Made by a program: the position numbers and the translations under genes. The notes beneath the pieces were generated by a model. That model made no database searches and was not told the origin of the DNA. It was given only the letters and a program-made list of their open reading frames with translations. Shown one piece after another: positions 1,483 through 36,100 of a stretch of DNA of 64,000 nucleotides. This stretch comes from Candidatus Hodarchaeaceae archaeon (lineage in GTDB: Archaea; Hadarchaeota; Hadarchaeia; Hadarchaeales; Hadarchaeaceae). Within the stretch, counting starts at the first letter, position 1, and the number at the start of each line of letters is the position of its first letter. The stretch is taken from assembly GCA_030016755.1 (NCBI GenBank), contig JASEJC010000001.1, positions 4,883-68,882 on the forward strand. Reading direction: 5' to 3'.

Positions 1483-2658
1483 ATGCCAGAAATCGACGTA
1501 GCTGTGTTGCTAACTGCCATCATCATAATGAGCTTCATCTACATGCTACTCTCTCCCTACATGCTAGGGGTCCAGGCGCGCATTGGGGTCGGGCAGCTGC
1601 GCAAGTCCGTTGCCGAGCTCCAGGCGCGTGCGAAGGAGAGCAGGAAAATAGCGCTGGGCGCGATAGCCAAACACGGGAAGCCGAAGCGCGACGTGGAGAA
1701 GGAGTTCGACAACTTTCTAGAGTTCTTCGCCATCGAGCCCGTGAGCGATGACCCCAGCGGAGTCCTGCGAAGGCTCGAACATATCCTTGATGTGCGGAAG
1801 CGACGGTTCGAGGGGGTGGTGGCTCGCTTGGCCCCAAATGCCGACCCAGAGTCAGCTGCAAACCTTGAGATGGTCATAGAGGGGGCTATGGCGAACTACG
1901 CCCTCTACCGCTTCATGCGCCACTTCACGCTGCTCGCCGAGAAGACGAAAAACATGCAGCTCGTCATGCTCATCCAGCTGAACGTCCCGTTCCTCAAGGA
2001 ATACTCCAAGGCCTTCGTGGAGGCAACAAGAGCCTTCGCCGCGGGAAAACCGATCGGCGACGGCGTGGGGGCGCTGACCGCAGCGAAACTCATAGACAAG
2101 GCCAAGTGGCAGGAGCCCGTCGAGGATACCGTCTACGCCGAGACCAAGTTCGACGGGCGAAAGCTCATCGTCGTCAAAGCAAAGGGGCCCGGCGGCAGGG
2201 TCGGCAAGCCGGGCGAGCTGGTCAAGCGGTTAATCCAAAAGCGAAAGGTCTCCCGCATCATCATGATCGACGCGGCCGGGAAGCTCGAGGGTGAAACGAG
2301 CGGGCAGGTGATTGAGGGAGTCGGGGCGGCAATCGGAGGCCCCCCAACCGAGAAGCACAAGATAGAGGAGATCGCGACCAGGCACAAAATACCGGTCGAC
2401 GCCATCGTGATCAAGGAGTCATTCACCGAGGCGATAAAACCCCTCAACAAGCACCTCGCCAAGGGAGTAGACGTTGCGATTGATACGGTTAAAAAAGCCG
2501 TAAGGGAGCGCACGAAGCCCGGCGATGTCGTCATCGTCGCTGGGATCGGGAACACCATAGGCATAGGGCAGGGCCTAAGGGAGACACCAAAGGAATTCCC
2601 AGCGCCACCTGAGAAGGAGAAGGGCGAGATCGAATCGAGCTTTCTGCCCCTGCGGTGA
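1483..2658 (+). CDS. Conserved archaeal protein with an N-terminal TM helix (DUF1512-like, from memory of the family)
   Basis: 391-aa ORF with a hydrophobic N-terminus (VLLTAIIIMSFIYMLL). No overlapping better ORF. The family assignment is from recollection only. Confidence 0.55.
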   Translation: MPEIDVAVLLTAIIIMSFIYMLLSPYMLGVQARIGVGQLRKSVAELQARAKESRKIALGAIAKHGKPKRDVEKEFDNFLEFFAIEPVSDDPSGVLRRLEHILDVRKRRFEGVVARLAPNADPESAANLEMVIEGAMANYALYRFMRHFTLLAEKTKNMQLVMLIQLNVPFLKEYSKAFVEATRAFAAGKPIGDGVGALTAAKLIDKAKWQEPVEDTVYAETKFDGRKLIVVKAKGPGGRVGKPGELVKRLIQKRKVSRIIMIDAAGKLEGETSGQVIEGVGAAIGGPPTEKHKIEEIATRHKIPVDAIVIKESFTEAIKPLNKHLAKGVDVAIDTVKKAVRERTKPGDVVIVAGIGNTIGIGQGLRETPKEFPAPPEKEKGEIESSFLPLR

Positions 2659-2706
2659 CCCTATTTTTAAGCCGCGGGGCGGATATTTTCTTAAGGAGTG
2701 GTATAC

Positions 2707-4896
2707 ATGCGACGCTACAAGCACCTAGCTGATGTCGAGAAAATTATGTGGATCCCAACACAAATTCGCAACATAGGCATCGTCGCGCACGTTGACCATG
2801 GGAAAACCACCTTAACGGATTCGCTGGTAGCCGCCTCGGGCATAATCAGCTACGACCTCGCGGGAGAGCAGCTCTTCACAGACTACCTCGAGATCGAGCA
2901 GCAGCGCGGCATTACCGTGCAGACGGCTGCTGTCAGCCTAGCGCACACCCTTGAGGGCAAGGAATACCTCATCAATCTACTCGACACCCCTGGCCACGTA
3001 GACTTCAGCGGTGACGTCACCCGGGCCCTGCGGGCGATTGACGGGGTGGTTGTTGTGGTTGACGCCGTCGAGGGAGTCATGCCCCAGACTGAGACGGTGC
3101 TACGTCAAGCTCTCCACGAACGAGCGCGCCCCGTGCTATTCATCAACAAGGTCGACCGCTTAATCGACGAACTCAAGCTGACGCCCGAGGGGATGCAGGC
3201 GCGCTTCATCAGGTTGATAACCAAGTTCAACCAGCTAATCAAGAGATACGCCCGCCCGGAAGATGCTGATAAATGGCAGGTGAAAGTTGAGGAAGGCTCG
3301 GTAGCGTTTGGGTCCGCAAAGGAGAAGTGGGCCCTTTCGGTTCCCCAGATGAAGAAGAAAAACATTAGCTTCAAAGACATCATCACCGCTTACCAGAGCG
3401 GCACCCAGGCCGAGCTGGCAAAGAAGAGCCCGCTTTTTGAGGTCGTCCTTGATATGGTCATTAGACACCTCCCCAACCCAAAACAGGCACAAGCAAGCCG
3501 GATGCCTGTGATATGGAAAGGCGACCTAGAGAGTGAACTCGGAAAAAGCATGGTTGCTGCCGACCCCAAAGGTAAGGTATGCATGGTGATCACAGACATC
3601 ATCGTTGACGAACAGGCTGGCGTGATCTCCACTGGGCGGATCTTCTCTGGTGTCCTAGAGAAGGGAAAAACTGTCAGGTTAGTTAGCGCCAATCAGGAGG
3701 CTCGCGTCCAGCAGGTTAGTGTCTACATGGGGCCCGACCGCGTTCCGGTTGAGAAAATCCCTGCTGGAAACATCGCCGCTATCATAGGGATGAAGGAGGC
3801 CTACGTGGGAGAGACCCTCATTGAGGCTGGCGTGGAAGGCAGGGGATTCGAAGAGCTCCGCTACATAAGCGAGCCCGTCGTCACGGTGGCCGTGGAGCCG
3901 AAGAACTTTCAAGAGTTACCCAAGCTCGTGAACGCGCTGAAGCGGATCTCTCGGGAGGACCCGAACATCAAGATCAAAATCAACGAAGAAACCGGGGAGT
4001 ATTTGGTATCCGGAATGGGGGAAGTCCATCTTGAAATCGTCGAATACAAGCTGAAGGAGGCGGGACTCGAGGTAAAAACTTCTGAACCCATCGTCGTCTA
4101 CCGTGAAGCCCTAACTGGAAAGGCCGGGCCGATCGAGGGCAAATCGCCGAACAAACACAACCGCTTCATGGTCGCGGTTGAACCATTGGAACCGGATGTC
4201 ATCAAGGCCATTGAGGAGGGCAAGGTCACTGACAAGCAGGAGCGGAAGGAGCGCGCGAATGTGCTCAGGGAACTCGGGTGGGAGACCCACGCAGCCCGCA
4301 ACATCGTCTCGATAATCGGCCCGAACATCATGACCGACGTGAGCAAGGGAGTGCAGTACATGCGGGAGGTGCAGGACTACGTCATCGAAGCATTCAAGGA
4401 GGTCGTCGAGGAGGGTCCCACCATGCGTGAGCCCATGCGCGGGTTGAAGGTGCTTATAGTTGACGCCACGCTGCACGAGGACTCGGTTCACCGGGGACCA
4501 GCACAGATTATACCTGCTGTCAGGCGCCCGATCCAGGCGGGGATCCTTCTCGCCAACCCAACCGTGCTCGAGCCCCTACTCAAACTTGAGGTGCGCGTGC
4601 CGCAGGAGTTCATGGGCGGCGCGACCAAGGTCATACAAGGCCGCCGGGGACGAATTCTAAGCATGGAGTCAGAGGAAGACATCGCGATAATAAAGGCCTC
4701 GCTCCCCGTGGCGAACTCTTTCGGGTTGGCTGCAGAGCTGCGTTCGGAAACCGAGGGACGGGCGATCTGGGGGACGGAGTTCGAGAAATTCGAGCAGCTG
4801 CCGCGGGAGCTTCAGGAACAGGTCATCCGGAACACGCGGAAGCGCAAGGGGCTGAAGCTGGAGCCGCCCAAGCCTGACGAGTTTATGGAGAAGTGA
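2707..4896 (+). CDS. fusA: Translation elongation factor 2 (aEF-2)
   Basis: GTPase motifs AHVDHGKTT, DTPGH and NKVDR, with the full five-domain length. AAGGAG lies about 10 nt upstream of ATG 2707 (the track ORF starts at GTG 2698). Confidence 0.97.
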   Translation: MRRYKHLADVEKIMWIPTQIRNIGIVAHVDHGKTTLTDSLVAASGIISYDLAGEQLFTDYLEIEQQRGITVQTAAVSLAHTLEGKEYLINLLDTPGHVDFSGDVTRALRAIDGVVVVVDAVEGVMPQTETVLRQALHERARPVLFINKVDRLIDELKLTPEGMQARFIRLITKFNQLIKRYARPEDADKWQVKVEEGSVAFGSAKEKWALSVPQMKKKNISFKDIITAYQSGTQAELAKKSPLFEVVLDMVIRHLPNPKQAQASRMPVIWKGDLESELGKSMVAADPKGKVCMVITDIIVDEQAGVISTGRIFSGVLEKGKTVRLVSANQEARVQQVSVYMGPDRVPVEKIPAGNIAAIIGMKEAYVGETLIEAGVEGRGFEELRYISEPVVTVAVEPKNFQELPKLVNALKRISREDPNIKIKINEETGEYLVSGMGEVHLEIVEYKLKEAGLEVKTSEPIVVYREALTGKAGPIEGKSPNKHNRFMVAVEPLEPDVIKAIEEGKVTDKQERKERANVLRELGWETHAARNIVSIIGPNIMTDVSKGVQYMREVQDYVIEAFKEVVEEGPTMREPMRGLKVLIVDATLHEDSVHRGPAQIIPAVRRPIQAGILLANPTVLEPLLKLEVRVPQEFMGGATKVIQGRRGRILSMESEEDIAIIKASLPVANSFGLAAELRSETEGRAIWGTEFEKFEQLPRELQEQVIRNTRKRKGLKLEPPKPDEFMEK

Positions 4897-6108: not shown

Positions 6109-6757
6109 ATTTTGTGCGTTTTAGATGGCGAACTCCAATCGGGCATAGGTCGTTAATTGGGCATTCTTGGTGAAGAGGGTTCCGGGCGCGACAGTAGCGC
6201 CGACCAAGCTCGACCAAAAGCATGTGGGCATCGCGCCTTCTGCCCGCGGATGTGACGCTCTCCAGCTTTGCCTTAACCTGCTCATGATTGTCTTTGTGTG
6301 AAGCAAGCCCCAAGCGCTTTGAGATTCGGAATACGTGGGTGTCTACCGCTATCACATCCTTCCCCGCCCCAAACGCCATCACCACATCGGCGGTCTTGAA
6401 GCCAACCCCCGGAAGCGAGAGCAGTTCTCGACGCGCCTCTTCTACCGGTTTCTGTAGGACAGAGTTAAGGTTCCCACCATATTTTTCCAACACTGCACGC
6501 GAGATTTCCCTCAGCCGCTTGGACTTTTCCCTGTGCAAGCCAGCAGGGCGAATAAGCTCTCGGATCTCTCGCACATCAGCGTTGGCGAGCTGTGCGGGCG
6601 TTCGAAACCTAGAGGTGAGGCGGTTGTAGGCTGCACGGGTGTTGCGCCAGTTGGTGTTCTGGGAGAGTACAGTGCCGACGAGCAGCAAGAATGGGTCATC
6701 GGTGTAGCGACGCCAAGGCTCGAACTCAGCACCCAACCGGTTTAAAATCATGTCCAT
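6074..6757 (-). CDS. nth: Endonuclease III / HhH-GPD DNA glycosylase with a 4Fe-4S cluster loop
   Basis: LVGTVLSQNT, HhH element LPGVGFKTADVV, catalytic D in VDTHV, and C-terminal Cys cluster CRARNPLHQECPINDLC. The start was set at MDMILN (6757). Confidence 0.85.
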   Translation of the reverse strand: MDMILNRLGAEFEPWRRYTDDPFLLLVGTVLSQNTNWRNTRAAYNRLTSRFRTPAQLANADVREIRELIRPAGLHREKSKRLREISRAVLEKYGGNLNSVLQKPVEEARRELLSLPGVGFKTADVVMAFGAGKDVIAVDTHVFRISKRLGLASHKDNHEQVKAKLESVTSAGRRRDAHMLLVELGRRYCRARNPLHQECPINDLCPIGVRHLKRTKFSPRAGARSTS

Positions 6758-8093: not shown

Positions 8094-8498
8094 TCAGACG
8101 ACCACCAGCTTGGCCTGCTTGACCCCACGGAGGGCGCCCAACCGATCGACGAGCTTGCGGATCTTCTCAGCTGGACCCTTGACGATTAACGTCTCTAAGC
8201 AGTTTTTGGTGTCCACGTGTAAATGCTGGACTGCGCCTATGATACTCAAACTCGCGTGTTGGATATCCATGAGCGCATCAGTCAGTCCTCGAACATCGTG
8301 CTCATACATCACGAGGATGGCGCCAAGTTGTTCTCCCTTTAACTCGCTGCGCCACTTGTAACTCGCCAAGAAATCCCGAAGCGCGTCCCTCACCGCTTCT
8401 GAGCGGCTCGCGTAGCCCTGAGCTTTGAGCATGCGATCGAGCTCATCTAGCAAATCTTGGGGCAACGTCAAGCTCACCCGCGTTATCCTTTGCGACAT
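8094..8498 (-). CDS. nikR: Nickel-responsive regulator NikR (ribbon-helix-helix plus C-terminal metal-binding domain)
   Basis: RVSLTLPQDLLDELD...GYASRSEAVRDALR forms the RHH. The C-terminal domain contains HVHLD-like VQHLHVD. The start was set at MSQRITRVS (8498). Confidence 0.85.
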   Translation of the reverse strand: MSQRITRVSLTLPQDLLDELDRMLKAQGYASRSEAVRDALRDFLASYKWRSELKGEQLGAILVMYEHDVRGLTDALMDIQHASLSIIGAVQHLHVDTKNCLETLIVKGPAEKIRKLVDRLGALRGVKQAKLVVV

Positions 8499-8545
8499 GC
8501 TTCCCCATCCAAACTTACACACATTTCAGTATTTCAAGTTTCGTA

Positions 8546-8573
8546 GTAATATTTATAACTAGAAAAGTATTAC
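8546..8573. promoter_or_regulatory. Dyad GTAATA-N16-TATTAC in the nikR / 8591 divergent promoter (candidate NikR operator)
   Basis: Perfect 6-bp inverted repeat with exactly 16 nt between the half-sites. The spacer contains TTTATAA (TATA-like). The E. coli NikR site has the same geometry (GTATGA-N16-TCATAC). Confidence 0.55.
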
Positions 8574-8590
8574 CACTTACCAAGAAAAAA

Positions 8591-8914
8591 ATGTTAGGAG
8601 GCACAAAAGTGGTTTGCTATACGATACCCTTGGCGGCGGCGATAATTTCGACCATCCTGTGGAGCTCCCAACGAAGAGGTCCTGCAGGGTGGTGGCTCAA
8701 CCTGCTGCTCTACGGAGGTGCAATGTTCGGAGTGGTGGATCACCTTTGGAACGGCGAGCTGTTCCTCATCGGGGAAGCGCCGCTCATGGACTTGCTCCTT
8801 GGATTTACAATTACGGCCGTCATCTTCGGTGGGTGGGGAATTACTTTCGCCGTTGCCAGAGCGTACCCCAATCTTGGCTACCGCATGGGTTTTTTGGAGC
8901 AGAAAAGACGCTGA
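8591..8914 (+). CDS. Small integral membrane protein divergent from nikR; function unknown
   Basis: 107 aa with three hydrophobic segments. It shares the promoter region that carries the dyad. Confidence 0.5.
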   Translation: MLGGTKVVCYTIPLAAAIISTILWSSQRRGPAGWWLNLLLYGGAMFGVVDHLWNGELFLIGEAPLMDLLLGFTITAVIFGGWGITFAVARAYPNLGYRMGFLEQKRR

Positions 8915-8991: not shown

Positions 8992-9261
8992 ATGGAGGAA
9001 GTTGCACCTGAAGAGAAGAAGCTCGTGGGAAAGGTGACCCACTACTTCACTAAGATAGGGGTGGGAGTCATCGAGCTTTCCGACGAGCTGAAGGTTGGCG
9101 ACCGGATCTCGATCGAGGGCGCGACGACAAACATCCAGCAAACCGTGGAGTCGATGGAGATTGAGCACAAAGCCGTGCAGAGCGCGAGCGCAGGGCAGTC
9201 GATTGGGCTCAAGGTCGTCCAGCGTGTGCGCGAGGGCGATCTCGTCTACAAGCTGGGCTGA
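8992..9261 (+). CDS. Small translation-elongation-factor-like protein (EF-Tu domain 2-like beta-barrel)
   Basis: 89 aa. GKVTHYFTKIGVGVIELSDELKVGDRISIEG...GQSIGLKV matches the small stand-alone EF-domain-2 family as I recall it. Confidence 0.7.
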   Translation: MEEVAPEEKKLVGKVTHYFTKIGVGVIELSDELKVGDRISIEGATTNIQQTVESMEIEHKAVQSASAGQSIGLKVVQRVREGDLVYKLG

Positions 9262-11433: not shown

Positions 11434-12072
11434 ATGAAGAAAGGCGAACGGGTTCTGCGCGAGATCCTATACCGCTTTCACGAGCGCAATGAGCGGTTCA
11501 TGAGCCAAAAGGCGCTGGCGGAGGCTTGCGGACTTTCCCTTGGCACGGTCAACCCAATCGTGCGCAGGCTAGAACAGCTTGGCGCCATCGAGAAGAAACC
11601 CCTAGGATTTAGGGTCAGCGATGTGACGCGCATCCTGCTGTACTGGGCCAGCAAGAGGAACTTGGCTAAGGATATAGTCTATAGCACCAGCACTTCCCTC
11701 TCAGCAGCAAATATTGAGAAGGACCTGCCCCAAGGCTCGGTTATGACTGCCTATTCTGGTTTCAATGCTAGATTTGGTGAAGTGCCGATAGACTATCAAG
11801 AAGTTTATGTGTATGCAGACCCGGCTGAGCTGAAGCGAAGGTTCCCCCGCGCGCGAGGCCGTTTGAATAACCTCATCGTGCTGAAGCCAGATGAACACCT
11901 CATTCGACTCAGCGAGGGAGGTATTGCCCCCCTAGCCCAGATTTACGTTGACCTGTGGCAACTTGGTGATCCGGCAAAAAAACTCGTCGATGAACTCGGC
12001 GCGCGGATGCGGGCAGGGGAGATAGGTGCGCTTCAGGGGATTATTAAAAGGACCCGGGAGCGGCCCGGATAA
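11434..12072 (+). CDS. Winged-helix transcriptional regulator with an uncharacterised C-terminal domain
   Basis: MSQKALAEACGLSLGTVNPIVRRLEQLGAIEKK forms the wHTH. The start was set at ATG 11434 (MKKGERV). Confidence 0.6.
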   Translation: MKKGERVLREILYRFHERNERFMSQKALAEACGLSLGTVNPIVRRLEQLGAIEKKPLGFRVSDVTRILLYWASKRNLAKDIVYSTSTSLSAANIEKDLPQGSVMTAYSGFNARFGEVPIDYQEVYVYADPAELKRRFPRARGRLNNLIVLKPDEHLIRLSEGGIAPLAQIYVDLWQLGDPAKKLVDELGARMRAGEIGALQGIIKRTRERPG

Positions 12073-12940
12073 TCGACTTCTCAAGCTTTAGGAGCAGAGC
12101 CTTTGCGCCCTCCAAGTTTGCCGTTTTACCCCTACACCGCGAACACGCTGCTGCTGCACGCTCGATATCTTTGCGGAAGCTCTCGTATGGTTTTGCCGCC
12201 TCAATTATCCTGTTCACAAGTGCCCGGATTTGCTTTGCCGGCACTTCAAATGTGCCACAGAAGGGGCACCCTGCCAACTCCTCAACGGCGCTGACCCTCA
12301 TTAAGGCCCGGTCTGGTCCCGATGGGTGCCGCTTCTTGACCAGGCGAACCGCATCCTCTGGGCAAACCTCCTCACAGCTGGCGCAACTGATGCACTTATC
12401 GTACATGAATTTCACCGTTCGCTTGTTGCCCTCGTCCGCCAGCTCTATCGCGGATGTTGGGCATGCCTTTTCACATGCGCCGCAGCCCGTACACTTCTCT
12501 GAATCAAGCTCGGGCTGCCCCCTGAAACCCTTGGGGGCCAGCCAGCGTCTGTACTTGACACCCATGGTCCGAGCTACCCCCTCCCCTATCGCCTGGGGAC
12601 TGGGTGGGCAACCAAGGACATACAAATTAACCGGGATGAACTTGTCCGTTGGTTCAAGAGCACTGTACGATTTCTGGAAAATCCCGCTTGATAGAGCACA
12701 CGTACCAACTGCAATCACGGTTTTGGGTTCCCTGAGCTTGTTGTAAACTTCCTTGAGGGGTCCCGCCATTTTTGCGCTGACGACTCCAACAACGAGGAGC
12801 ATATTCGCTTTCTCGGGCTCGTCCACTATTCTCGCTTTGAGATTTCCAATACCGAACCTCTCAGCCAGTGCACACACTACCTCGATGTCGCAGCCATTGC
12901 AGGAGCCAACGTTCAGGCGGTAAACTCCTATCTCGCTCAC
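12044..12940 (-). CDS. [NiFe]-hydrogenase small subunit (NuoB/MbhJ/EchC-like) fused to a 2x[4Fe-4S] ferredoxin domain and a CxxC-x37-CxxC tail
   Basis: GSCNGCDIEV, GTCALSSG and GCPPSP are the NuoB-type cluster ligands. CTGCGACEKACP and CISCASCEEVCP follow, then CPFC...CSRC. GTG start at 12940. Confidence 0.85.
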   Translation of the reverse strand: MSEIGVYRLNVGSCNGCDIEVVCALAERFGIGNLKARIVDEPEKANMLLVVGVVSAKMAGPLKEVYNKLREPKTVIAVGTCALSSGIFQKSYSALEPTDKFIPVNLYVLGCPPSPQAIGEGVARTMGVKYRRWLAPKGFRGQPELDSEKCTGCGACEKACPTSAIELADEGNKRTVKFMYDKCISCASCEEVCPEDAVRLVKKRHPSGPDRALMRVSAVEELAGCPFCGTFEVPAKQIRALVNRIIEAAKPYESFRKDIERAAAACSRCRGKTANLEGAKALLLKLEKSIIRAAPGSF

Positions 12941-12951
12941 CTCAACCCGTC

Positions 12952-14277
12952 CTAAATTCCCGTACTAAACTGTACAGGCAATTTTTCTGGCTCCATCCCC
13001 AGCTTCGCTTGGGCTACAAGCCCATCCACTGGGGACTGCATCTGCCAGCAGTCGGCGGGGACGTGCCTCGCCCCATCCTTAGCTATGTTCCAGCTCGCCA
13101 CCAAGTGACGGCTGGCCTCGAACCCGCAAGCTTTGCACCTGTAGGTGTGCCCATTCGGCCTGTTGTACCGGCCACATATCGGGCAGTCCTTCGACTTGTG
13201 GTAGTTGCTGACCTCCACCGTTGGCAGTCCTTGTCGCGCCACCTTGTACTCGGCATAGAACTGGAACTTTCGGAAAGGCCACTGGTTGAGCCTCCTGCGC
13301 ATGTCCTTCCGCAGGGCCCTGCCGTTCTTCGACTTGCGCTTCGAGCGCATGAAACCACGAATTCCCTTGATACCCCCGAAGGTGACCGCGACTCGCTCTC
13401 GCTCGGCAATCTTGGCGATCTGTTTGCTGACAACGTGTAGGATCTGGTTAGTGCGGTTGCGCTCCCTTCGCCAGTACTTCGCCTTGAGCCTGCGCTTCTG
13501 CACCGGTCGCTGCGGTGGCGTATCCAGCTTTCGCTGAATCGATTTGCGCTTGAGCTGTGACGAGTGCCTTATCGCGGGGAGCTTTGAGACATCGAGACTG
13601 ATGTGTTTTGGCTGTTCGTTTGGCTTCAGGATGGTCAAATCAACGCTCTGCTCGTTGATGTCTATGCCGCAGATGCCCTCCGTTGGCCTCGGTTCCACCT
13701 CGCACTTGAACGGCACAAAAACATTGGCTCGATCTTTGAATAGCGAGATCGTGATTTCCCCGACTTTCTTTTTACCTTCCCGCCAGTCGCGGAGGTATCG
13801 GAGTACGTGGTGCTCGGTCACCACGAGCGGAAGCCAAAGGTACTCCCCGCGACGGATTCTGATTTGAATCACATTTCCGCAGAACCTGCAAACGCCAGTT
13901 TGGTTTCTATCGCCCCAGAGTTCTAGGCGCATTGTCCGCGCTTTGTAGGCGGGTGGCTTCTCCGGGTTCGCCTGTCCTTGGCGACAGAGCTTCCGCCACG
14001 AGCGGAGCGTCTGCGTAGCCATCTGCCCGGCCGAGTGGAACCAGTGCGTCGCTAGATCAAAGCGCGACTTCCACTCCTCGTAGGCGACGTGATGTAGCGA
14101 GGCGCGGGAAGTAACCTTATGTTCGAGGCACTTCTGGATGTAGAAGTTAACCGACTCCGCGAACTTGCCGAGGAGATCGCCCAGCAGCTCGCGCTTTCGC
14201 CCAGTCAGCGGAGGTGTAATGAATCTAGCGGAGCTGACGGACTGCACATCTTCTACCTCCGATGCGTTTTCTACCAT
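12952..14277 (-). CDS. TnpB-like (IS200/IS605 OrfB family) protein with apparently degenerate RuvC motifs II and III
   Basis: GICGIDINE (RuvC-I), zinc ribbon CPICG...CKACG and C-terminal WNIA are present. The expected IVxEDL reads VAVTFGGI, and the expected RDxNAAxNI reads RHLVASWNI. The track ORF extends to GTG 14412. ATG 14277 (MVENAS) lies about 45 nt downstream of a TATA-like box. Confidence 0.85.
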   Translation of the reverse strand: MVENASEVEDVQSVSSARFITPPLTGRKRELLGDLLGKFAESVNFYIQKCLEHKVTSRASLHHVAYEEWKSRFDLATHWFHSAGQMATQTLRSWRKLCRQGQANPEKPPAYKARTMRLELWGDRNQTGVCRFCGNVIQIRIRRGEYLWLPLVVTEHHVLRYLRDWREGKKKVGEITISLFKDRANVFVPFKCEVEPRPTEGICGIDINEQSVDLTILKPNEQPKHISLDVSKLPAIRHSSQLKRKSIQRKLDTPPQRPVQKRRLKAKYWRRERNRTNQILHVVSKQIAKIAERERVAVTFGGIKGIRGFMRSKRKSKNGRALRKDMRRRLNQWPFRKFQFYAEYKVARQGLPTVEVSNYHKSKDCPICGRYNRPNGHTYRCKACGFEASRHLVASWNIAKDGARHVPADCWQMQSPVDGLVAQAKLGMEPEKLPVQFSTGI

Positions 14278-14320
14278 TTTCTGCCCAAGCCACTTTGGGG
14301 GAGGGGGGTCTCCGAAAGTA

Positions 14321-14338
14321 ATATATAAACTATTTAAA
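14321..14338 (-). promoter_or_regulatory. TATA-like box (minus strand CCTTTAAATAGTTTATATAT) upstream of the TnpB-like ORF
   Basis: AT-rich box in an otherwise GC-rich spacer, about 45 nt upstream of ATG 14277. Confidence 0.4.
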
Positions 14339-14449
14339 GGGCTCCCAGGCACGACCTGATTGTCTTCTAGAGCCCATTTTTGGTGCCTTTTTTCGCCATT
14401 TTTCAGGGGCACCGAAAGTATTCCCCGAATGATACGGTCTGGTACGGTT

Positions 14450-15595
14450 TTATGTAGCAGCTACAACACCCCTCAGCTCATCTAAAGTGACCCGCCTGCT
14501 CCTTCCCGTCCGCTCGTCCACGACAGTGACGCGATTCGTACAGGAGATGCAACGGTCCAGGCTCTCCAAAATCACTGGGAAGTCGGCTAGTTTTTGTTCG
14601 CGGAGCATCTCCACGACGGCTCGATCGTTCATGTAAGTAGGTGGCCTGAGCTTAACCCGTTCTGGATAATTTGTTCCGTTCGACCTCACATAATAAATAA
14701 GCTCGCCTCGCGGTGCCTCCACTCTGCTGAAGTCCTCCCCAACCAGCGGCTCCCTAATATCCACGCTAATTTCACCTTTAGGCATGCGCTCGATTAGCTG
14801 TCGGATAATTTTCACGCTTTCCAAAGTCTCCCTCGCCCGAACCAAAGCCCTTGAAAAAACATCGCCCTCCTCTTCCGTGGGGATTTCGAAATCCACTTCC
14901 CCATAGGCGGCATACGGGTCGTCTTTCCGTATATCGCTTTCAACACCTGATGCTCTGAGCACGGGGCCCACTACACCGTATGCCCTTGCTTTACCCCTAG
15001 GTAGGGGACCGAGCCCCGAAAGCGTGGGCGCTGCATTCCTAAGCTCTCTTGAAATGTCATCAGTGAGGGTTTCGAGGTCACCCATCAGAGACTTCACTGC
15101 TGCCAACATCCTCTTGGTCACGTCGCGCCTGACCCCACCTATCGAATTTATCGAAAAGTGCACCCGGTTGCCGCAGATGGACTCGATTAAATCCATCAAG
15201 CTCTCACGAGCGTTGATGATTTTAATGAACTGACCTTCGTTGTGTAGTGTATGAAAAAACAACCCAAACCACATGTAATGACTGTGCAAACGATCCATCT
15301 CAAAAACTAGTGACCTGATATTTCTCGCCCGCGCCGGAACTTCCGCGCCGAAAATCTTTTCCACCGCTTGGCAATATGCCGTGGAGTGGGCTTGGGAGCA
15401 CAACCCGCATACGCGCTCAGCCAGGAAAACATTTTGAACAAATGACTTCGATTCCATCAGGCGCTCAATCCCACGATGCGTATAGCCTTGCCTAATTTCC
15501 ACATCAGTAATTTTGCCATCGCGCACAGTAATCTCGTATAACTCTGGCTCCAGCAACAAGGGGTGATATGGCCCTACCTTTACCACATCGAACAT
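14450..15595 (-). CDS. [NiFe]-hydrogenase large subunit, group-4-like (EchE/MbhL/NuoD fold)
   Basis: N-terminal Ni-binding pair RVCGLCSQAH and C-terminal pair DRCISCTNR are both present. VGPYHPLLLEP and GYTHRGIE are family motifs. Confidence 0.9.
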   Translation of the reverse strand: MFDVVKVGPYHPLLLEPELYEITVRDGKITDVEIRQGYTHRGIERLMESKSFVQNVFLAERVCGLCSQAHSTAYCQAVEKIFGAEVPARARNIRSLVFEMDRLHSHYMWFGLFFHTLHNEGQFIKIINARESLMDLIESICGNRVHFSINSIGGVRRDVTKRMLAAVKSLMGDLETLTDDISRELRNAAPTLSGLGPLPRGKARAYGVVGPVLRASGVESDIRKDDPYAAYGEVDFEIPTEEEGDVFSRALVRARETLESVKIIRQLIERMPKGEISVDIREPLVGEDFSRVEAPRGELIYYVRSNGTNYPERVKLRPPTYMNDRAVVEMLREQKLADFPVILESLDRCISCTNRVTVVDERTGRSRRVTLDELRGVVAAT

Positions 15596-16462
15596 TTACC
15601 CAATCCTCGCAGCCAGTTGGGAGACTGGGCTTCGATGAAACTCTAACGACAGCTCCTTTGCAGGTACACTAAAGGCGAGGGCTAGAAGCTCAGCTAAGTG
15701 TAGACATGGGACCGAAAACTTTTCGCCGTATCTTCTGAGGTCAAGCTGCCCTGATTCAAACTGAACGTTGCATGCGGGACACACCACCGTGACGCCATCG
15801 ACCCCCACGTGTTGATAGCACTTCAGCTTAGGGAGGAGGTTGTGCTTCAGCGAAAACTCTTTATCTACTTGGGATGTCGGAAAACCGCAACACATCTGAT
15901 CTAAATCACAGCGGATGACCTCAGCCCCCGTCGCGCGCACTAGCTCCTCGAACTGCCTTGGCTTCCTCCAGATGTCTCCACCGTCTTCCTCCCTGAAGAG
16001 GTGACAACCGTAGTGTACCGCTAGCTTCAGGTTAAGCGGTTTCTTGACCCGCTCCTTTATCGCTTCGACTCCGACATCCTCATGGAGAACCTCTACAATG
16101 TGCCTGACCTTTATTGTCCCCCCGTACTTCCTCCCCACCTTGGTCAAGAGCTCATTGATCTCGCCGGCAGTTTCCTCCTGTTTCATGGCTTCGTTGGCCT
16201 CCCACAGTGTCTCAAAACAGCCGTTGCACAGCACCACAACATCGAGGCCCTGTTTCTCCGCTATGCTCAAGTTCCTAGCCGATAGGGAGAGCGCGACCTT
16301 CCTATCCATCAGGCGTGCCAAGATTGGGTCCGGGCAACATGTGTAGCCCGACATGTCCGCGATCTCGAGCCCAAGCGAACTGAAAACTTTGCGTGTGGCC
16401 AGTTCAGCGCTGGGGAGCCGCTGGGGTATCAAACAACCCAAGAAAAGAGCATATTTTTTCAC
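15596..16462 (-). CDS. HdrB-like protein with two CCG domains (heterodisulfide-reductase subunit B family)
   Basis: YALFLGC...YTCCPDP and ...QMCCGFP...CPAC are the CCG-type Cys motifs. The probable GTG start at 16462 overlaps the NuoC-like stop (GTGA). Confidence 0.8.
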   Translation of the reverse strand: MKKYALFLGCLIPQRLPSAELATRKVFSSLGLEIADMSGYTCCPDPILARLMDRKVALSLSARNLSIAEKQGLDVVVLCNGCFETLWEANEAMKQEETAGEINELLTKVGRKYGGTIKVRHIVEVLHEDVGVEAIKERVKKPLNLKLAVHYGCHLFREEDGGDIWRKPRQFEELVRATGAEVIRCDLDQMCCGFPTSQVDKEFSLKHNLLPKLKCYQHVGVDGVTVVCPACNVQFESGQLDLRRYGEKFSVPCLHLAELLALAFSVPAKELSLEFHRSPVSQLAARIG

Positions 16463-17130
16463 TTTTTCGTCCCCCTCAATTTCTTCCGCTCCCAATCGTA
16501 GCCGACCCGCTCGCTGAAACTCGTCTGCTTGATTAGCTCGTGAACCTCTTTCAGCTGGGGCTCGCTCGAGTAACTTGCGGGGGGTTGGGGAGGTAGCCCC
16601 GCCTCCACGCGCCTGCGCTCAACCAAGGGAGTTATGGGCGCAGTGGCACCGACGGTTGTAATAGCCTCAGCTACGGGGGTGATTTCATCTGGCACTGGGG
16701 GCTTGAAGGGCTTGCCCAGCGGGAAACTGCCCTCCGGCCACTCGTCTTGTAACACCAAATGCCTCGGCTCGGGATGGTCCCTGAATTTCGCCCCGCAAAG
16801 CTCGGCTGCCTCCTTCTCCGCCCATTCCGCCGCCGGAGTCAGGCCGACTATGCTATCGATTTCAGGGTTCTCCTTCGCCAACCTTGTTTTCAGCACCACG
16901 ACCCTACCCGTTAAATCGAAGTGGTAAAGCAACTCGATATCCAACCCCACATCGATGGCTGCGATGATTATGAACCGTGCCCCCCCACCAAGCAGGCTCT
17001 CGGTGGCCTTTCTTATCGCCCCAGGTGTTATCTCCGCCCAAACCTTGCGTTCTCGAGGCGTGGACGCGTTCAGAAGTTCGTCCCCGAGGTTTTCCTTCAG
17101 GAGTTTAACTATTGCGTTTTCCTCCACCAT
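16459..17130 (-). CDS. NuoC/MbhK/EchD-like 30-kDa hydrogenase subunit
   Basis: LLYHFDL...PAAEWAEKEAAELCGAKFRDHPEPRHL. The start was set at MVEENAIV (17130), after AAAGGAGGTG, overlapping the upstream stop (TAATG). Confidence 0.85.
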   Translation of the reverse strand: MVEENAIVKLLKENLGDELLNASTPRERKVWAEITPGAIRKATESLLGGGARFIIIAAIDVGLDIELLYHFDLTGRVVVLKTRLAKENPEIDSIVGLTPAAEWAEKEAAELCGAKFRDHPEPRHLVLQDEWPEGSFPLGKPFKPPVPDEITPVAEAITTVGATAPITPLVERRRVEAGLPPQPPASYSSEPQLKEVHELIKQTSFSERVGYDWERKKLRGTKK

Positions 17131-17705
17131 TACACCTCCTTTAGATATCGACTTCGCATGAACTCTGACGCTTCGGCGCGGGTGCCAACCCTGATCGCTT
17201 GAGGGGAGCAGTACTTGGCGCACTGAGGGTCGCCGTCGCAGAAGTTACACTTGGTTGCGACGCGGTGCTCCTCGTCGAACCATGCTGCGGCAAGGGGGCA
17301 GGCGTAGATGCAGGAGCGGCAACCGGTGCACTTCATCGGGTTTATTGCCACCCATCCCGTGCGCTCGTCCCTAGTAATTGCGTCCTCCGGGCAGGCGGCA
17401 ACGCACACCGGGTTCTCGCAGTGTAAACAGTTGTTCGCTTCACGCACAAACTTCTGATCGTCGATGAAAACATGAATATGGGATTTCTCCGGGTTGAGGG
17501 TGCCGAAGTTTCTGTGGGCGCACGCGATCTCACAATACCGGCAACCCGTGCACCGTTCCGCATCGTAGATAAGCACGAGCTGCTCCTCCTTAGACTTCTC
17601 CAAGAGGGTCGCCTCTTTTGCCGAAAGGGGGCTGATGCGCTTAAGGCTTTCGTTTCTTGCCACCCAAGCTGCGTTCGAAAATTTCCTCGCCCGGTTTCCA
17701 CCCAA
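17130..17705 (-). CDS. Poly-ferredoxin of the HycB/DmsB type (four Cys clusters)
   Basis: CTGCRYCEIAC, CLHCENPVCVAACP, CTGCRSCIYACP and CNFCDGDPQCAKYC. The start is uncertain because the ORF overlaps the 3' end of the upstream gene by about 65 nt. Confidence 0.8.
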   Translation of the reverse strand: MGGNRARKFSNAAWVARNESLKRISPLSAKEATLLEKSKEEQLVLIYDAERCTGCRYCEIACAHRNFGTLNPEKSHIHVFIDDQKFVREANNCLHCENPVCVAACPEDAITRDERTGWVAINPMKCTGCRSCIYACPLAAAWFDEEHRVATKCNFCDGDPQCAKYCSPQAIRVGTRAEASEFMRSRYLKEV

Positions 17706-30100: not shown

Positions 30101-33100
30101 TTATTTATTCTTGCCCTTGGCGTTGCCTCGCCCCTGATTACCGCCACCTTGGTCTAGGTTTCCACCACGTTGCCCTGGCCCTGCCCGCCACCCTGATTCT
30201 CCTTGACCTTGGCCCGGAGATTGACCGCCCTGCTCGGGAGGCGTTTGGGGTGGGCCTTGTCCCTGCCCTTGGTTTCCACCCTGCCCCGGCGTCCCGCCCG
30301 ATTGGCCTGGCGGAACTTCTGGCCTGTTCCCGTGACCTTGGCCCTGTCCCTCACTAGGTTTGATAACCCGGATGGTGTCGCTTCCTCTGAACGGTGCGGA
30401 GCCCCACTTGCCGATTACCGTCAGCTCAACATTGTCACCAACGCTCACCAGCCCTTGCACGGCCGAGCGATCGAACTTAACCATCAGGTCTGGCACGCCG
30501 TCGCCGTCGTGGTCACCGATCTCGGTTGGCCAAGGCTCAGCGGATAGGATTCCCTCGAGGAAGATGTCGCCCTCGAGAGCCACGGTGCTCACGTCGATTT
30601 TCGCCACATCAAGGCCGCCCGGCAGCTCGATGTAGCAGGTTATCCAGCGGCCTTGGCTACGGAGGTTTAGAGTTTCAGGGTCGATGTCGATCATAGCGGG
30701 TATCAAGGTGGCACACCTGGCGTCGGCTTCCGGTGGCGGCCCCTCGACGTTTCCCGCCACATCGCAGGCTATAGAGTAGAACTCGTAGAAGCCGTGGCCT
30801 GCTGGTATGTCGAACGACCACTCGTAGGGCTCCTCGTTGTCGGCCCCGAACGATGTCCAATCGCCCCAAGTTGAATTGTCGAGCGAATGGCGGTAGTAAA
30901 GCTCGACGCTCGCGACGCCGCTCAGTCCATCCGATGCTGTGGCGGTAATTGCAAAAGGCGTCAAGGTCTGCCAGTAGGGCTCGATCGGATCGACCGAGGA
31001 GACCGGTGGAGTAGTGTCAACCCCGATCCTCTCATCGGGCTCCTCGGGTGCCTTCTCGACATTTCCGGCAACGTCTGCGGCGATCGAGTAGAGTTCGTAG
31101 TAACCATTGCCTTGGGACGGGTCGAACTGCCAAGCGTACGGGGACTGGTCATCAGCGGCGTAAAGCGTCCAGCCCGACCAGTTGAGGTTATCGGGCGAGT
31201 AACGGTAGTATAATCTGACATCCCTCATTCCGCTTGGTACGGCACCGTTCGGCGGGACTGGATCGTTTGCCGCGGCAGTCACTTCAATTGGAAGCATCGA
31301 AGCGTTGTGCCAGTGGGGTTCGATTGAGTTAAGGCTGGAAATGGGGGGCAGCGTGTCGACGCCCGCCTGTGCATCGGCACTCTCCGGGGCCGCCTCACGG
31401 TTTCCGGCTCGGTCCGCCGCAACCGAGTAGAACTCATAGAAGCCATCGCCAGCGGGGGCATCGAATGTCCAAGAGTAAGGTTCGGAATTGTCTATGTCGT
31501 AAAGCGCCCAGTCGCTCCATGTTGAGTTATCAGCGGAGTATCGGTACCACAGTTCAATGTTTTCGGCTCCACTCAGCGCGTCGGAAACCGTGGCGGTTAC
31601 CTGGAACGGGACCGTCCCCGCGTTCTGCCACAATGGGCTGACTGGGTCAACGGAAGATAATGGTGGCATAGTGTCAACGCCGCACATCGCGCCCGTAACC
31701 ACGGCCTTCACGGTTGGAGTGTACTTCCAGCCGCCATCCGTGTAGATGCTCTCGCCGTTCCACACCGCGTCCCATATGGTTCCAATCCCAGAGGCAACGG
31801 ACATCAATCCTCCTGAGGGTAACTCATACCTCCAGATCTTGCCATCTTGCCACACAAGGTACAGATATCCATCACCGGGTATCATTATCGAAACTATCGC
31901 CACGGGATACGGGTATCCGGGCGCTTGCACGGGTGTGACGCCGGAGATCGTCTTCAATCTGACCCAGCTATCGGAAGAAATCGTATACCTCCACAGTTCC
32001 AATGAATAATATGTCCCCTCAAGGAGCGCATAAATGTGATCCCGTCCATCCCACGTCAAGTCCGCTGCCAGCATGCTAGACGGGAACGATAGGGTATCCC
32101 ACCTGTTGCCCGAGATGGAGTACCGCAAGAAGATCCCACCGTTGTCCAAGGTGTAAATGTAATCGTCGCCAGTCCATACCAGTGCCCCCCTGTGAATCCC
32201 GATGGGAGTTGATGCCATGCTCTCCCAGCGGTTTGCTGAGATGGAATATCGCCAGAAGTCATGCTTGGGGTCGAAGTAGTAGCCTCTAAGGGCGTAGAGA
32301 TGCCCATCTGCCCAAATCAAGCTGTTGAAGCTCGCCCCTTCAGCCGGCATAGCGGTCAGGTGCGTCCACGTATTGTTGGAGATAGAGTAACTCCAGAGTT
32401 CGCTCCATGTGCGCATGTATACCTTGTCGCCCCCATCCCAAGCCAGCCCCCTCCAGCCCTCGGTGGATGCCGGAGCCGAGATGGAAGAGAACGTTCCATC
32501 AACATGAACTACTGAGACAGCCCCCCTCATCCCCTCCGCGTTGCCAGCGCGATCTGTTGCGACGCTTGTGAACTCGTAGTACCCGTCCCCCGCAGGAGAA
32601 TCGAACTTCCAAGTCCAAGGCTCGTTGTCATCGATGCCGAGCGACCGCCACTCGGACCAGCTTGAGTTATCTGGCGAGTAGCGGTAGAAAAGCTCAACGT
32701 TACCGACCCCTGAGAGGATATCCGACGCTTTTGCGGTCACCTCAAGCGGGAGGGTCTCATCATTTTGCCAATAAGGCGTTATTTGGTCGAGGTAAGATTC
32801 TGGAGGCGTGGTGTCCACACCAGCTCTAGCAGTCGCCTTCGGCCATGTTATGTGTGTGTCCACATTCACATCGCCGAATAGGTCAAACCATACTGTGTAA
32901 ATGTAGTCGGATGTATCAGATCCAGCAAACTCGCTTCTGATGTTCCCATCCACAGAGATGACCTCAATGTTACCAATTCGAACAGGTTCGGGTAACCATA
33001 TCCGACCTCTGAAACCTTCTAGCTCCTCCACCCATTCATCAACAGGCTCAGGAATCCAGTGCCGGCCCCATATTTCTTTTATTTCCATCCTTACCCTGAT

Positions 33101-36100
33101 ATCGACGTCCATCATGGTTACATCTATCCACGTGGGCCACCAACCATTCTCCCAATATCCGTAAAAGTTCTCGCCTTCGATCTCGATCCAAATCCCATAA
33201 GTTCCATTCGGGTTCCCGGGATTTCCTCCGTACTCATACTCTGGGGCCTCGACCTCATATGGTCCGCGCTCAAAAGAGGCCCCTGCCTCACCCCTAAGGC
33301 TTCCTATGAGCGTTCTCGATTCGACCACGGGCTGCTCGAGGTTCCCCGCCCTGTCAACGGCGAGGGTGCCGAACTCGTAGTAACCGTCCTCCTCGGGGGC
33401 GTCGAATGAGCACTCCCATGGCCACTCGTTATCAACACCGTAAAGCCTCCAGTCGTTCCAGCCCATGTTGTCATTTGAGTACCTGTAGAACAGCATGACC
33501 TCTTTAACGCCGCTCCGGTCGTCCGTCGCGGTTGCCGTGATAGTGAAAGGCAGCTCACTTTGCCAGTAGGGTGAGATCGTATCTACAGATGAGGTGGGCG
33601 GGACGGTATCGATGTAGACGTATGTGGCCCCCGACCAATCGCTCCAAGCCCCCGCCCCGTTCTGTGCGCGGACCTTGATGTAATAAATGCCATCAGCTAA
33701 AGTTGGATGATAGCTAGTATCCGTTGTGTAAAACGTGTCTTCCGACCAAGAGCGGTATACCTCATATTGATTCACCCCAGTATCAGGATCGCTTGCTACC
33801 CAGTACCAATGCGGTGAATTGTGGTTCGACCATTCTCTGCCGCAGTGATCCTCACCGACTATCGGGGTAGTTGGAGGCGTTGTATCCACGACTAAGGTGT
33901 AAGTGCCGTCACCGCTAATTTTACGAACCTCGATATAGTAATAACCCGACATCTCCGCAGTATAGATTATCTCCTCGCTCATGTGGCCTAGATGTGTGGA
34001 ACTCGCGATTAAGTTCTGTTCAGGATCGTATAGATGAAGGTCGAAATCACATTCGTGGTTTTCTTTTATGCCAATCGTTTTGCCCTTTTCTGCCCCAATT
34101 TGATAAAAGTCCTTTATATCCACCCCTCTTAAGCTGCCTGTGTATCTCCCCGAAAGTATCCTCCTTGGGCAATCAAGATTATCGCCTGCATCGCCTGCGA
34201 ATCCCGCATCAAATTGTTGTTCGATCCTAATCATCTCCGTGTCTAAATAACTTACCCCGGCGTATTTCGCTCTTGCTCTCAGGAGATAAGTGCCGCTTGG
34301 AGCATTTGCCGGCGCAAATATTGACTCCCTATAATACGCAGAACTGCCTGATCCGAGGGTAGTCCTATCAATAAGTCCGCCACTGATGGTCTGGCCATTA
34401 CTGTCCATGAACTCCAAGTATACATCAACTCGCTCTAAAGTGCGTGGTAAGTTATTACGCACATCGAAGAGAACGTAAAACTCATCGCCTGCCATAACTT
34501 CTGAAGGGGCCTCTAATAAATTAACGGTCAGCTCATTAATGACCCTCATCGGCATTTGTGGATCACCTAGCAAAACTGTTGTCAGTATCAGACCCCGATT
34601 ATTTGGATCACCGACCCCTTTCTCTTGTAAGTACTGCCGCTTTGCGGCATCTAAACACACCGCCGGTTGGTACCGATGTTCTGTAAAAAATTTCTGCCAA
34701 AAAAGAACATCAAGTTTTCCGCTTAAATCCTCATTAAGACCAGGTTCAAAAAGAACTCCGTGCACGTATGGTGCCTCTCTAGAGTTACCTACATAAGCGA
34801 TTGCAGTTTTTCCTTCGACAAAGGGACTGTATAGAGAATATTCACCTATCGTTGGTTTATCGTAATCGAAACTCGCAGAATAACATGCTACTACATACAT
34901 CAAAAAACCTTCTGAATTTGTAAGTTGAGCTACCGTGCATTCTCGGTAAAATGGAAAAAAGTCCTTTTTTCCTTTCTTTCCTTTTGCCGATAACTCAATT
35001 TCGTTTCCATGTGAAAACGAGTTAATGATTCCGGGTTCAAGTTGATTTATGGCATTCACTACGTTTATCTCTGTTAAATTCGCATCTTCGTCATAAAGTG
35101 TATGAGTGTCAACCTGCCCCCTTGCGAAATTAGCTATGGGGGCTTTAACTTCTGAACCATAATGGTCCCTAGTCCAACTTTGGTATATCCAGCCGCCGAG
35201 TAAAAGGAAATCCTCAACCGCCGGGCGATTAGCACCATACTCTGTGATCTTTTTAATAGATGGGGTTGGTACCCTGCTGACGTGGACCTCTGGTATCCAA
35301 TCTACTTCATCAAAAATTATCGATCCTAAAAAGGAAGCAAATTCACCGAAATTGCTATTGGTATTGTAATCGTCCCAAGTTCCATCCAAACAAGCATAAT
35401 AAGAATCTGCTGGCGCAAACGCTCGCCAAACCTCTCCGCGTTTCTTTGCTTGTTCTTCGAATATCCCATACAAGCGTACGTATCTTGTAGGAAGTTCCCA
35501 GTAATTGTCAAGCGCTGGTGGCTGCGGTGTCGCATCATAGGACGTTGGCCTATCGGCTGGATCCACGTCACCATTCAACAACACCCACTTGACATTTTTA
35601 TTAAGATAATACCATTTAATGCAATTTCTTATTTTTTCCGGTATATCTCTACCTTGGTAAGTATTTGTGATGCCGAGTGTGACATGGTCAAAAATCACGT
35701 TCCCGTCTTCGCTTTGATCTACCGTGACAACGTATGTTTCTAACCCCCAATCCTCTTTTTGCCGTACAAAGGCGTTCAAGTCCGCATCAACTAACTTTGG
35801 TCGCGTCACGATGAGGTAACCATCATCATTTGAGTTCTCTTGGGAGGCTAAATCATCATGTTTGATTTCAGACTCTAGACTATTATATGGAGGGTCTACT
35901 TCTACATACACCTTAATTTGTTCATAAAATACCATCTCCCCTACTGAAGGACGATATTGAATCGGGTAAACCCAGATGCCAATTACTAGCGACCCTCCTT
36001 CCCCACCCACCACCATAGCTTCCCCCAAACGTCCGGGATAGAATAAACCTGAATTATAAACGTTCCCATCCAGAAATAAAACCGTTGATTGTGATGTTTG

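Follow-up and report, generated by a model that had tools for sequence, protein, structure and literature searches.

The closest points of reference for the site described here are the operators of bacterial NikR proteins. In E. coli, the NikR operator at PnikABCDE is GTATGA-N16-TCATAC (PMC7055735). The delta-proteobacterial NikR signal is GTGTTAC-N13/14-GTAACAC, with the reversed form GTAACAC-N13/14-GTGTTAC in D. psychrophila, and sites of this type have been predicted in bacteria upstream of nikMNQO/nikK and of a hydrogenase operon (Rodionov et al. 2004, PMC545781). In H. pylori, the consensus is TRWYA-N15-TRWYA, and nickel-loaded NikR represses uptake genes as well as nikR (PMC3177205). A NikR homologue of Methanothermobacter is produced only under nickel limitation (PMC12350162). 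In the literature as far as it was searched, NikR operators have been characterised experimentally in bacteria only, and archaea are represented by comparative predictions in methanogens. Rodionov and co-workers reportedly predicted NikR sites in that group in 2006. The present analysis concerns a stretch of 64,000 nucleotides (the window) from contig JASEJC010000001.1 of a Candidatus Hodarchaeaceae archaeon of the Hadarchaeota, in which a perfect palindrome lies between nikR and a divergent gene for a small membrane protein.

It appears likely that this palindrome is the operator of the adjacent NikR, that nickel-loaded NikR occludes the promoter of the membrane-protein gene, and that the product of this gene serves most likely in nickel acquisition. 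The parts of this interpretation differ in strength: comparison of related loci indicates that the palindrome is very probably a NikR binding site and gives good support to nickel control of the membrane-protein gene by NikR, and the nickel-uptake role, a candidate function, is the weakest link. The features of the locus are the following.

8546-8573, no strand: predicted NikR operator, GTAATA(T)-N-(G)TATTAC, from its sequence and its conservation in 17 of 19 Hadarchaeota-type loci
8552-8559, plus strand: TATA-box-like element TTTATAAC of the presumed membrane-gene promoter, inside the operator spacer, placed by standard archaeal architecture
8530-8543, minus strand: putative nikR promoter, a BRE-like (transcription factor B recognition element) CGAAAC followed by TATA-like TTGAAATA, a presumptive assignment
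8094-8498, minus strand: nikR, 134 aa, N-terminal ribbon-helix-helix and C-terminal nickel-binding domain, from Pfam, NCBIfam and structure matches
8596-8601, plus strand: Shine-Dalgarno motif AGGAGG of the membrane-protein gene, 7 nt upstream of the GTG at 8609
8609-8914, plus strand: small membrane-protein gene, 101 aa, three transmembrane helices, predicted NikR target, from homologue alignment and an AlphaFold2 (AF2) model

The palindrome and the adjacent regulator

The palindrome, GTAATA TTTATAACTAGAAAAG TATTAC, is a perfect 6-N16-6 inverted repeat of 28 bp with TTTATAA at 8552-8558 in its spacer; taken as 7-mers, its half-sites occupy 8546-8552 and 8567-8573 (GTAATAT-N14-GTATTAC). The intergenic region that hosts it comprises 110 bp with 32% GC. 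The distance to the nikR ATG (8498) is 48-75 nt, and the palindrome lies upstream of both potential starts of the membrane-protein gene, at 18-45 nt from the ATG at 8591 and at 36-63 nt from the GTG at 8609. An earlier note on this DNA had described the dyad with the TATA-like element in its spacer, the half-site spacing identical to that of the E. coli operator and the distances to nikR and to position 8591, and all of this was confirmed. GTAATA-N16-TATTAC has no other perfect match in the window, and allowing up to two mismatches adds a single match, at 6328, inside a coding region. Against GTRWYAC-N14-GTRWYAC the dyad scores 13 of 14. When the window was searched for a second NikR box, the surroundings of the hydrogenase and larB-like genes included, no other site reached 13 or more; five sites score 12, below the chance expectation of 10.6.

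The gene at 8094-8498 had been called nikR in the earlier note, and its sequence identifies the product unambiguously as a bona fide NikR. The protein matches Pfam RHH_1 (residues 7-45, E=1.4e-10) and NikR_C (E=4.1e-26, 91.5 bits with a cut-off of 22), and it exceeds the cut-offs of two NCBIfam models, with 156.8 bits for NF002169, "nickel responsive regulator" (cut-off 111), and 129 bits for NF003381 (cut-off 105). Its score against TIGR02793, which we take to be an enterobacterial-type model, is under the cut-off. Among solved structures, its best match is NikR of P. horikoshii (2bj1, E=9.4e-31). The high-affinity nickel ligands of NikR are a His, a His-x-His motif and a Cys (H76, H87, H89 and C95 in E. 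coli), and the stretch IQH...QHLHVDTKNC of the window protein aligns with LQH...LHVHMDEHNC of P. horikoshii and with the H. pylori equivalents, so that the QH...HxHxxxxxC pattern is kept.

A scan for the membrane protein with one genome per species yielded 58 loci, the best matches all being from Hadarchaeota (Hadesarchaea), and their upstream regions were scored against the degenerate core GTRWYAC-N13/14-GTRWYAC, with a maximum of 14. A score of at least 12 was reached by 17 of the 19 Hadarchaeota-type regions (null expectation 0.023 per region), and a score of at least 13 by 11 of the 19 (null 0.0018). In the alignment of the Hadarchaeota upstream regions, the only conserved blocks are the dyad (AGTAATAyTTwTA...AAAAGTATTAy) and the Shine-Dalgarno motif, the flanks being unalignable, and the dyad is found between -45 and -64 from the start codon. 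Eight Hadarchaeota loci have a divergent nikR next to the membrane-protein gene. The box is also kept where nikR is not adjacent (L005, L011, L013 and L016-L018) or stands at a distance of about 0.75-1.25 kb (L010, L015), and one metagenome-assembled genome (MAG; contigs CAYSRF01) contains two copies of the membrane-protein gene (L005 and L007), each preceded by a box; such a distribution is as expected for a trans-acting regulator. Sites scoring at least 13 outside the region just upstream of the membrane-protein gene number four in 402 kb of related loci, and one of these is the operon box of a planctomycete described below.

Divergent nikR neighbours recur in Nitrososphaerales (L019), Thermoplasmata (L040), Micrarchaeota (L029, L044, L050), a MAG assigned to Methanobacteriota (L048) and an unclassified archaeon (L023), as far as co-occurrence in other genomes, which the earlier note had suggested checking, is concerned. 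The NikR proteins of the loci outside Hadarchaeota are 31-46% identical to that of the window. Outside Hadarchaeota, 7 loci have a divergent adjacent nikR, and 6 of them carry a box scoring at least 13; of the 31 loci that lack such a neighbour, 1 does. The boxes read GTATTAC-N14-GTAATAC in L019, GTATTAC-N13-TTAWTAC in the three micrarchaeotal loci, GTAACAC-N13-GTGTTAC in L023 and L033, and GTAACAC-N13-tTGTTAC, with one mismatch to the reversed signal, in L040. Because GTAWTAC is nearly self-complementary, the direct and the reversed forms differ only at the central base. The bacterial locus L022, from a Planctomycetia MAG (2103-4276), has a perfect GTGTTAC-N13-GTAACAC and, 11 nt after it, the ATG of a compact operon in the order nikR, OprB-family porin, membrane-protein gene, with a promoter of the bacterial sigma-70 type. 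With the dyad kept upstream of orthologous genes and boxes beside nikR in other phyla, the proposal of the earlier note that NikR and nickel control the membrane-protein gene has gained support.

The type of half-site varies together with the DNA-contacting part of the regulator as represented by its beta-strand, which points to NikR as the reader of the box. A strand of the form R-x-[S/A]-[LIV]-[S/T] goes with GTAWTAC boxes in Hadarchaeota, L019, L029, L044 and L050, and a strand R-[FV]-G-V-S goes with boxes of the GTGTTAC/GTAACAC type in L022, L023, L040 and L048. The third residue of the strand (Gly versus Ser/Ala) may thus be a specificity determinant for the half-site type.

Several observations weigh against an operator. 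The palindrome could have arisen by chance in an AT-rich intergenic region, or the conservation could concern basal promoter elements (BRE, TATA box, proximal element) only. Perfect 6-N16-6 dyads of any sequence occur 17 times in the window, against an expectation of about 15.6, which is chance frequency; a shuffled version of the 110-bp intergenic region contains a perfect 6-N16-6 dyad with P=0.033, and a dyad with any spacing of 10-20 with P=0.25. The dyad by itself is merely marginally unusual. Its spacer contains the TATA-like element, and its arms are at the positions of the BRE and the proximal element. One Hadarchaeota locus (L009) is without a box, and in another (L008) the left arm is weakened to ATAATAT. 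It should be noted that the Hadarchaeota loci share descent, so that locus counts overstate the number of independent observations, although the flanks are nonetheless too diverged to be aligned. The covariation of beta-strand and half-site, small but consistent, comes from few lineages.

Nevertheless, the significance of the dyad derives from its conservation across genomes and not from the statistics of the window. Both arms are kept as an inverted repeat between flanks that cannot be aligned, and the same half-site core precedes a nikR operon with a promoter of a different kind, namely the sigma-70-type promoter of the planctomycete. Outside Hadarchaeota the box tracks the adjacent nikR, the half-site type follows the NikR beta-strand, and the core equals the published NikR signals (PMC545781). 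An accidental palindrome or conserved basal elements alone are therefore highly improbable explanations. The random occurrence of the motif, which the earlier note had named as a possible objection, thus applies to 6-N16-6 dyads as a class, and the conservation upstream of orthologues exceeds chance. An RNA structure was considered as a further reading of the dyad and rejected, as folding is no better than that of shuffled sequences (z=-0.47) and the site lies between divergent genes.

A separate metagenome scan with a 29-bp pattern (6-N17-6, one base longer than the site) returned 57 loci (L059-L115), none of which encodes the membrane protein, and nikR stands beside the match in L103 only. 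An identical 29-bp palindrome, GTAATACTTCCAATTTAAAAAAGTATTAC, recurs in metagenome contigs of high GC content, several of which carry the label human gut (L061, L066, L069-L071, L074, L080, L081, L090, L095, L099 and L104). In L099, it lies between a gene for a 1439-aa repetitive surface-type protein and short open reading frames (ORFs) of phage-like look; this contig was examined and has no nikR nearby, and GTAATACTTCCAATTTAAAAAAGTATTAC was rejected as a NikR box and regarded as unrelated.

Promoter architecture and proposed repression

Wherever the dyad is present in Hadarchaeota, its left half-site is directly followed by TTTATA, TTTTTA or TTATAT, and the spacer of most boxes from the other archaeal phyla includes an A/T-rich sequence resembling a TATA box. 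By analogy with archaeal promoters, transcription of the membrane-protein gene is predicted to start at about 8581-8583, which would result in a leader of about 27 nt with a Shine-Dalgarno motif. This would place the left arm of the palindrome at the BRE position. The right arm (8567-8573) would occupy approximately -14 to -9, past the TATA box but short of the predicted start. The nickel-loaded NikR tetramer would bind with one ribbon-helix-helix dimer at each end, and the two dimers would contact half-sites (GTAATAY toward the centre) about two helical turns apart, bracketing the TATA box. Bound NikR would exclude TBP, TFB and RNA polymerase, that is, it would act by promoter occlusion. The membrane-protein gene would be off at sufficient nickel and on at scarcity, a direction that is predicted because the NikR proteins of the bacteria studied bind DNA in their nickel-loaded form. 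The 101-aa protein might function as an oligomeric permease or as an uptake accessory with an outward Cys/Asp-His/Glu site, supplying the [NiFe]-hydrogenase.

The earlier note had also proposed autoregulation of nikR. The gene could be co-repressed through steric interference, its own promoter abutting the left arm of the palindrome, and this is plausible and parallels H. pylori and Methanothermobacter; it is, however, less secure than control of the membrane-protein gene. A conserved block, cGAAAGnTTGAAAAT, is found 33-38 nt before the nikR ATG, and only in loci with an adjacent nikR. It starts 2-12 bp past the left arm of the dyad, so that the BRE/TATA-like element of nikR is not overlapped, and in L008 the dyad is 115 bp away from the nikR ATG. 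In the window, the TATA-like part of this putative promoter is at 8530-8537, and transcription of nikR is predicted to start near 8508.

The intergenic regions of L040, L048, L050 and L019 often contain two NikR-like boxes, each enclosing an A/T-rich sequence that resembles a TATA box; the pair in L040 is GTGCTAC-N13-TTGTTAC and GTAACAC-N13-TTGTTAC. Outside Hadarchaeota, such pairs suggest separate operators for the two divergent promoters.

The membrane-protein family and its genomic surroundings

The earlier note had assigned the membrane protein 107 aa, from the ATG at 8591, and this gene is likely mis-started. The start is most likely the GTG at 8609, giving 101 aa, because AGGAGG is found 7 nt upstream of it, because the great majority of the aligned homologues begin with M-V-C-Y or M-C-Y at this codon (a few are called longer), and because coding conservation upstream of it is absent in the related loci. 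GGAGG(T)G is kept at the Shine-Dalgarno position in these loci. The AF2 model of the 101-aa protein (predicted local distance difference test score, pLDDT, 88.8) consists of three long helices and a short C-terminal helix. The positive-inside rule would put the N-terminus and the second loop outside, and the RRGPAG loop and the K/R-rich tail inside.

Close relatives of the protein number about 290. With a profile, only 126 clusters at 50% identity were found among 1.84 billion representatives, nearly all of them stand-alone proteins of 90-115 aa. Most of the family comes from archaea without cultured members (Hadarchaeota, Micrarchaeota, Thermoplasmata, Nitrososphaerales, DPANN) and from Omnitrophota and Planctomycetota. 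Among 86 divergent representatives, Cys3 is conserved in 83, Asp/Glu44 in 86, His45 in 85 and Glu50 in 79, and all four residues are on the predicted outer face. The acidic-His pair in a transmembrane helix presumably recalls the His/Asp signatures of NiCoT and HupE/UreJ. Longer matches in the search of representatives (P0217, P0229, P0244) turned out to be repetitive, unrelated proteins. In another protein, P0195 (227 aa), the family core (GGAAFGIVDHAWNGELL...) is joined to the C-terminal portion of a permease of the ABC-3 (Zn/Mn) type; this may be a genuine fusion, which would hint at metal transport, or a chimera of assembly or gene calling, and it is too isolated for use.

The neighbourhood of the homologues repeatedly includes genes of nickel metabolism. 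hycI-hypA is directly upstream of the membrane-protein gene in an Omnitrophota MAG (L024), the gene of a [NiFe]-hydrogenase large subunit adjoins it in a Woesearchaeota MAG (L034), hycI adjoins it in an Aenigmatarchaeota genome (L049), and hypA, identified by eye from the sequence, is beside it in the Hadarchaeota loci L003, L012 and L017. An OprB-type porin gene is upstream in two bacterial phyla, in the planctomycete L022 and, directly upstream, in the Omnitrophota locus L030.

The nickel side of the interpretation has its own counter-evidence. Most bacterial and DPANN homologues are without a box and have unrelated neighbours, many DPANN loci showing housekeeping genes, so that the nickel link is not universal. 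That nickel is the metal of the window NikR is assumed, and a methanogen NikR homologue encoded beside a zinc transporter has been suggested to be a zinc sensor (PMC3087415). This would fit a real operator that is read by another regulator, or by a NikR that senses another metal, the membrane protein then belonging to a different regulon. It would also fit that a homologue follows a gene for a Fur-family regulator in L020, and that the homologue in L026, which has HydF as another neighbour, precedes a gene for CDF cation efflux. However, nikR is the recurrent divergent neighbour in archaea and the first operon gene in the planctomycete, the metal-ligand stretch of NikR is conserved, hypA and hycI, which adjoin homologues, are nickel-specific maturation genes, and the box equals NikR signals upstream of bacterial nikMNQO (PMC545781). 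Another reader or another metal is thus quite improbable.

The function of the protein is the point at which NikR control and nickel import have to be separated. The protein and its gene could be under NikR control without importing nickel, for example as an exporter for detoxification, as a sensor or anchor in the membrane that acts on NikR, or as an accessory of hydrogenase maturation or assembly. The small size, three helices and the lack of similarity to any transporter are compatible with such a role: the 101-aa protein has no match in Pfam-A or NCBIfam, so it was not assigned to any known Ni/Co transporter family; a Pfam scan of 72 family members gave nothing above threshold, the sole recurrent match being a sub-threshold one to DUF7393 (27 members, best E=0.0014); and a fold search with the model retrieved generic helical bundles only, none of them an informative structural neighbour. 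The hydrogenase maturation and structural genes next to homologues in some taxa, and the CDF efflux gene in one, point in the same direction. An operator over the TATA box and the region before the start would, however, imply repression by the nickel-loaded form, which is the opposite of what an exporter needs. Furthermore, the gene follows an OprB-type porin gene in two bacterial phyla, in one of them within an operon with a NikR box, which is an import-like layout, and the conserved Cys, Asp-His and Glu are predicted to face outward. A role other than import is therefore rather unlikely.

Nickel acquisition as the role of the protein is thus favoured because of the expected repression by holo-NikR, the outward Cys, His and acidic residues and the import-like contexts. 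A more specific proposal, which is put forward tentatively and is somewhat less than evenly balanced, is that the protein represents a new NikR-controlled family for nickel uptake, working as an oligomer with an outward Ni(II) site (Met/Cys3, Asp/Glu44-His45, Glu50), and possibly the main nickel route where no known transporter is linked to NikR.

Two further nickel-related features that the earlier note had mentioned were found in the window, a larB-like fragment (AIRC domain) at 48-611 and the [NiFe]-hydrogenase large subunit gene at 14450-15595. The region of the latter contains a 486-aa ORF with a Cas12f1-like TNB domain (12952-14412, minus strand), located between hydrogenase subunit genes, that is, between a NuoB-like/ferredoxin subunit gene (12044-12940) and the NuoD-like [NiFe] large subunit gene (14450-15595). 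The ORF is read here as TnpB-like and looks like the insertion of a mobile element inside the hydrogenase operon. The large-subunit gene is followed by an HdrB-like gene with a CCG domain (15596-16495) and a NuoC-like gene (16459-17223). Just downstream of the membrane-protein gene, at 8992-9261, an 89-aa protein resembling EF-Tu domain 2 or the C-terminal domain of Peptidase_U32 is encoded, and it is syntenic in 13 loci. The window also contains a very long ORF of 2118 aa at 30101-36457 (minus strand).

Comparison with known NikR targets and nickel transporters

Ni/Co uptake proteins of the small or secondary type, namely NikN/CbiN, NikL, HupE/UreJ and NiCoT, resemble the window protein as membrane proteins that are under NikR control or are encoded beside hydrogenase genes. 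The window protein differs in having three helices, an N-terminal M-(V)-C-Y and no Pfam or NCBIfam match, and, unlike components of the Nik/CbiMNQO type, it stands alone, with no M, Q or O partners nearby.

In H. pylori, nikR is likewise divergent from a nickel-acquisition gene (nikR / exbB-exbD-tonB), and the core TAATA/TATTA of the window site fits TRWYA. The spacing of the window site is one base longer, and the H. pylori sites are poorly palindromic; in addition, the H. pylori NikR also activates genes. The delta-proteobacterial signal is, like the window site, an inverted repeat of 7-mers spanning 27-28 bp, and the window site corresponds to its reversed form with T for C at position 5. 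The reversed signal is exact in L023 and L033, and the canonical one in L022. In contrast to the delta-proteobacterial sites, the window site is archaeal and precedes a gene of an unannotated family.

Should the protein turn out to transport nickel, it would form a new class beside the few nickel importers known so far, and would help to explain how [NiFe]-hydrogenases are supplied in Hadarchaeota and other uncultured lineages. The site itself is a conserved archaeal case of half-sites that bracket a TATA box, offering a simple picture of how a sensor of the bacterial type might close an archaeal promoter.

The E. coli operator offers the closest match in geometry. Both sites have the 6-N16-6 arrangement of 28 bp with identical spacing, the half-sites share G-T-A-x-x-A (4/6), and both lie beside nikR in the promoter of a gene presumed to serve nickel acquisition, with repression by nickel-loaded NikR as the expected outcome. 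The half-site of the window is GTAATA instead of GTATGA, the promoter is of the archaeal TATA/BRE type with the TATA box in the spacer itself, the presumed target gene encodes one small membrane protein and takes the place of an ABC transporter operon, and nikR is divergent instead of downstream. The operator is thus probably an archaeal instance of a well-known kind of site, and its target would be an unannotated family within the NikR regulon of both Archaea and Bacteria.

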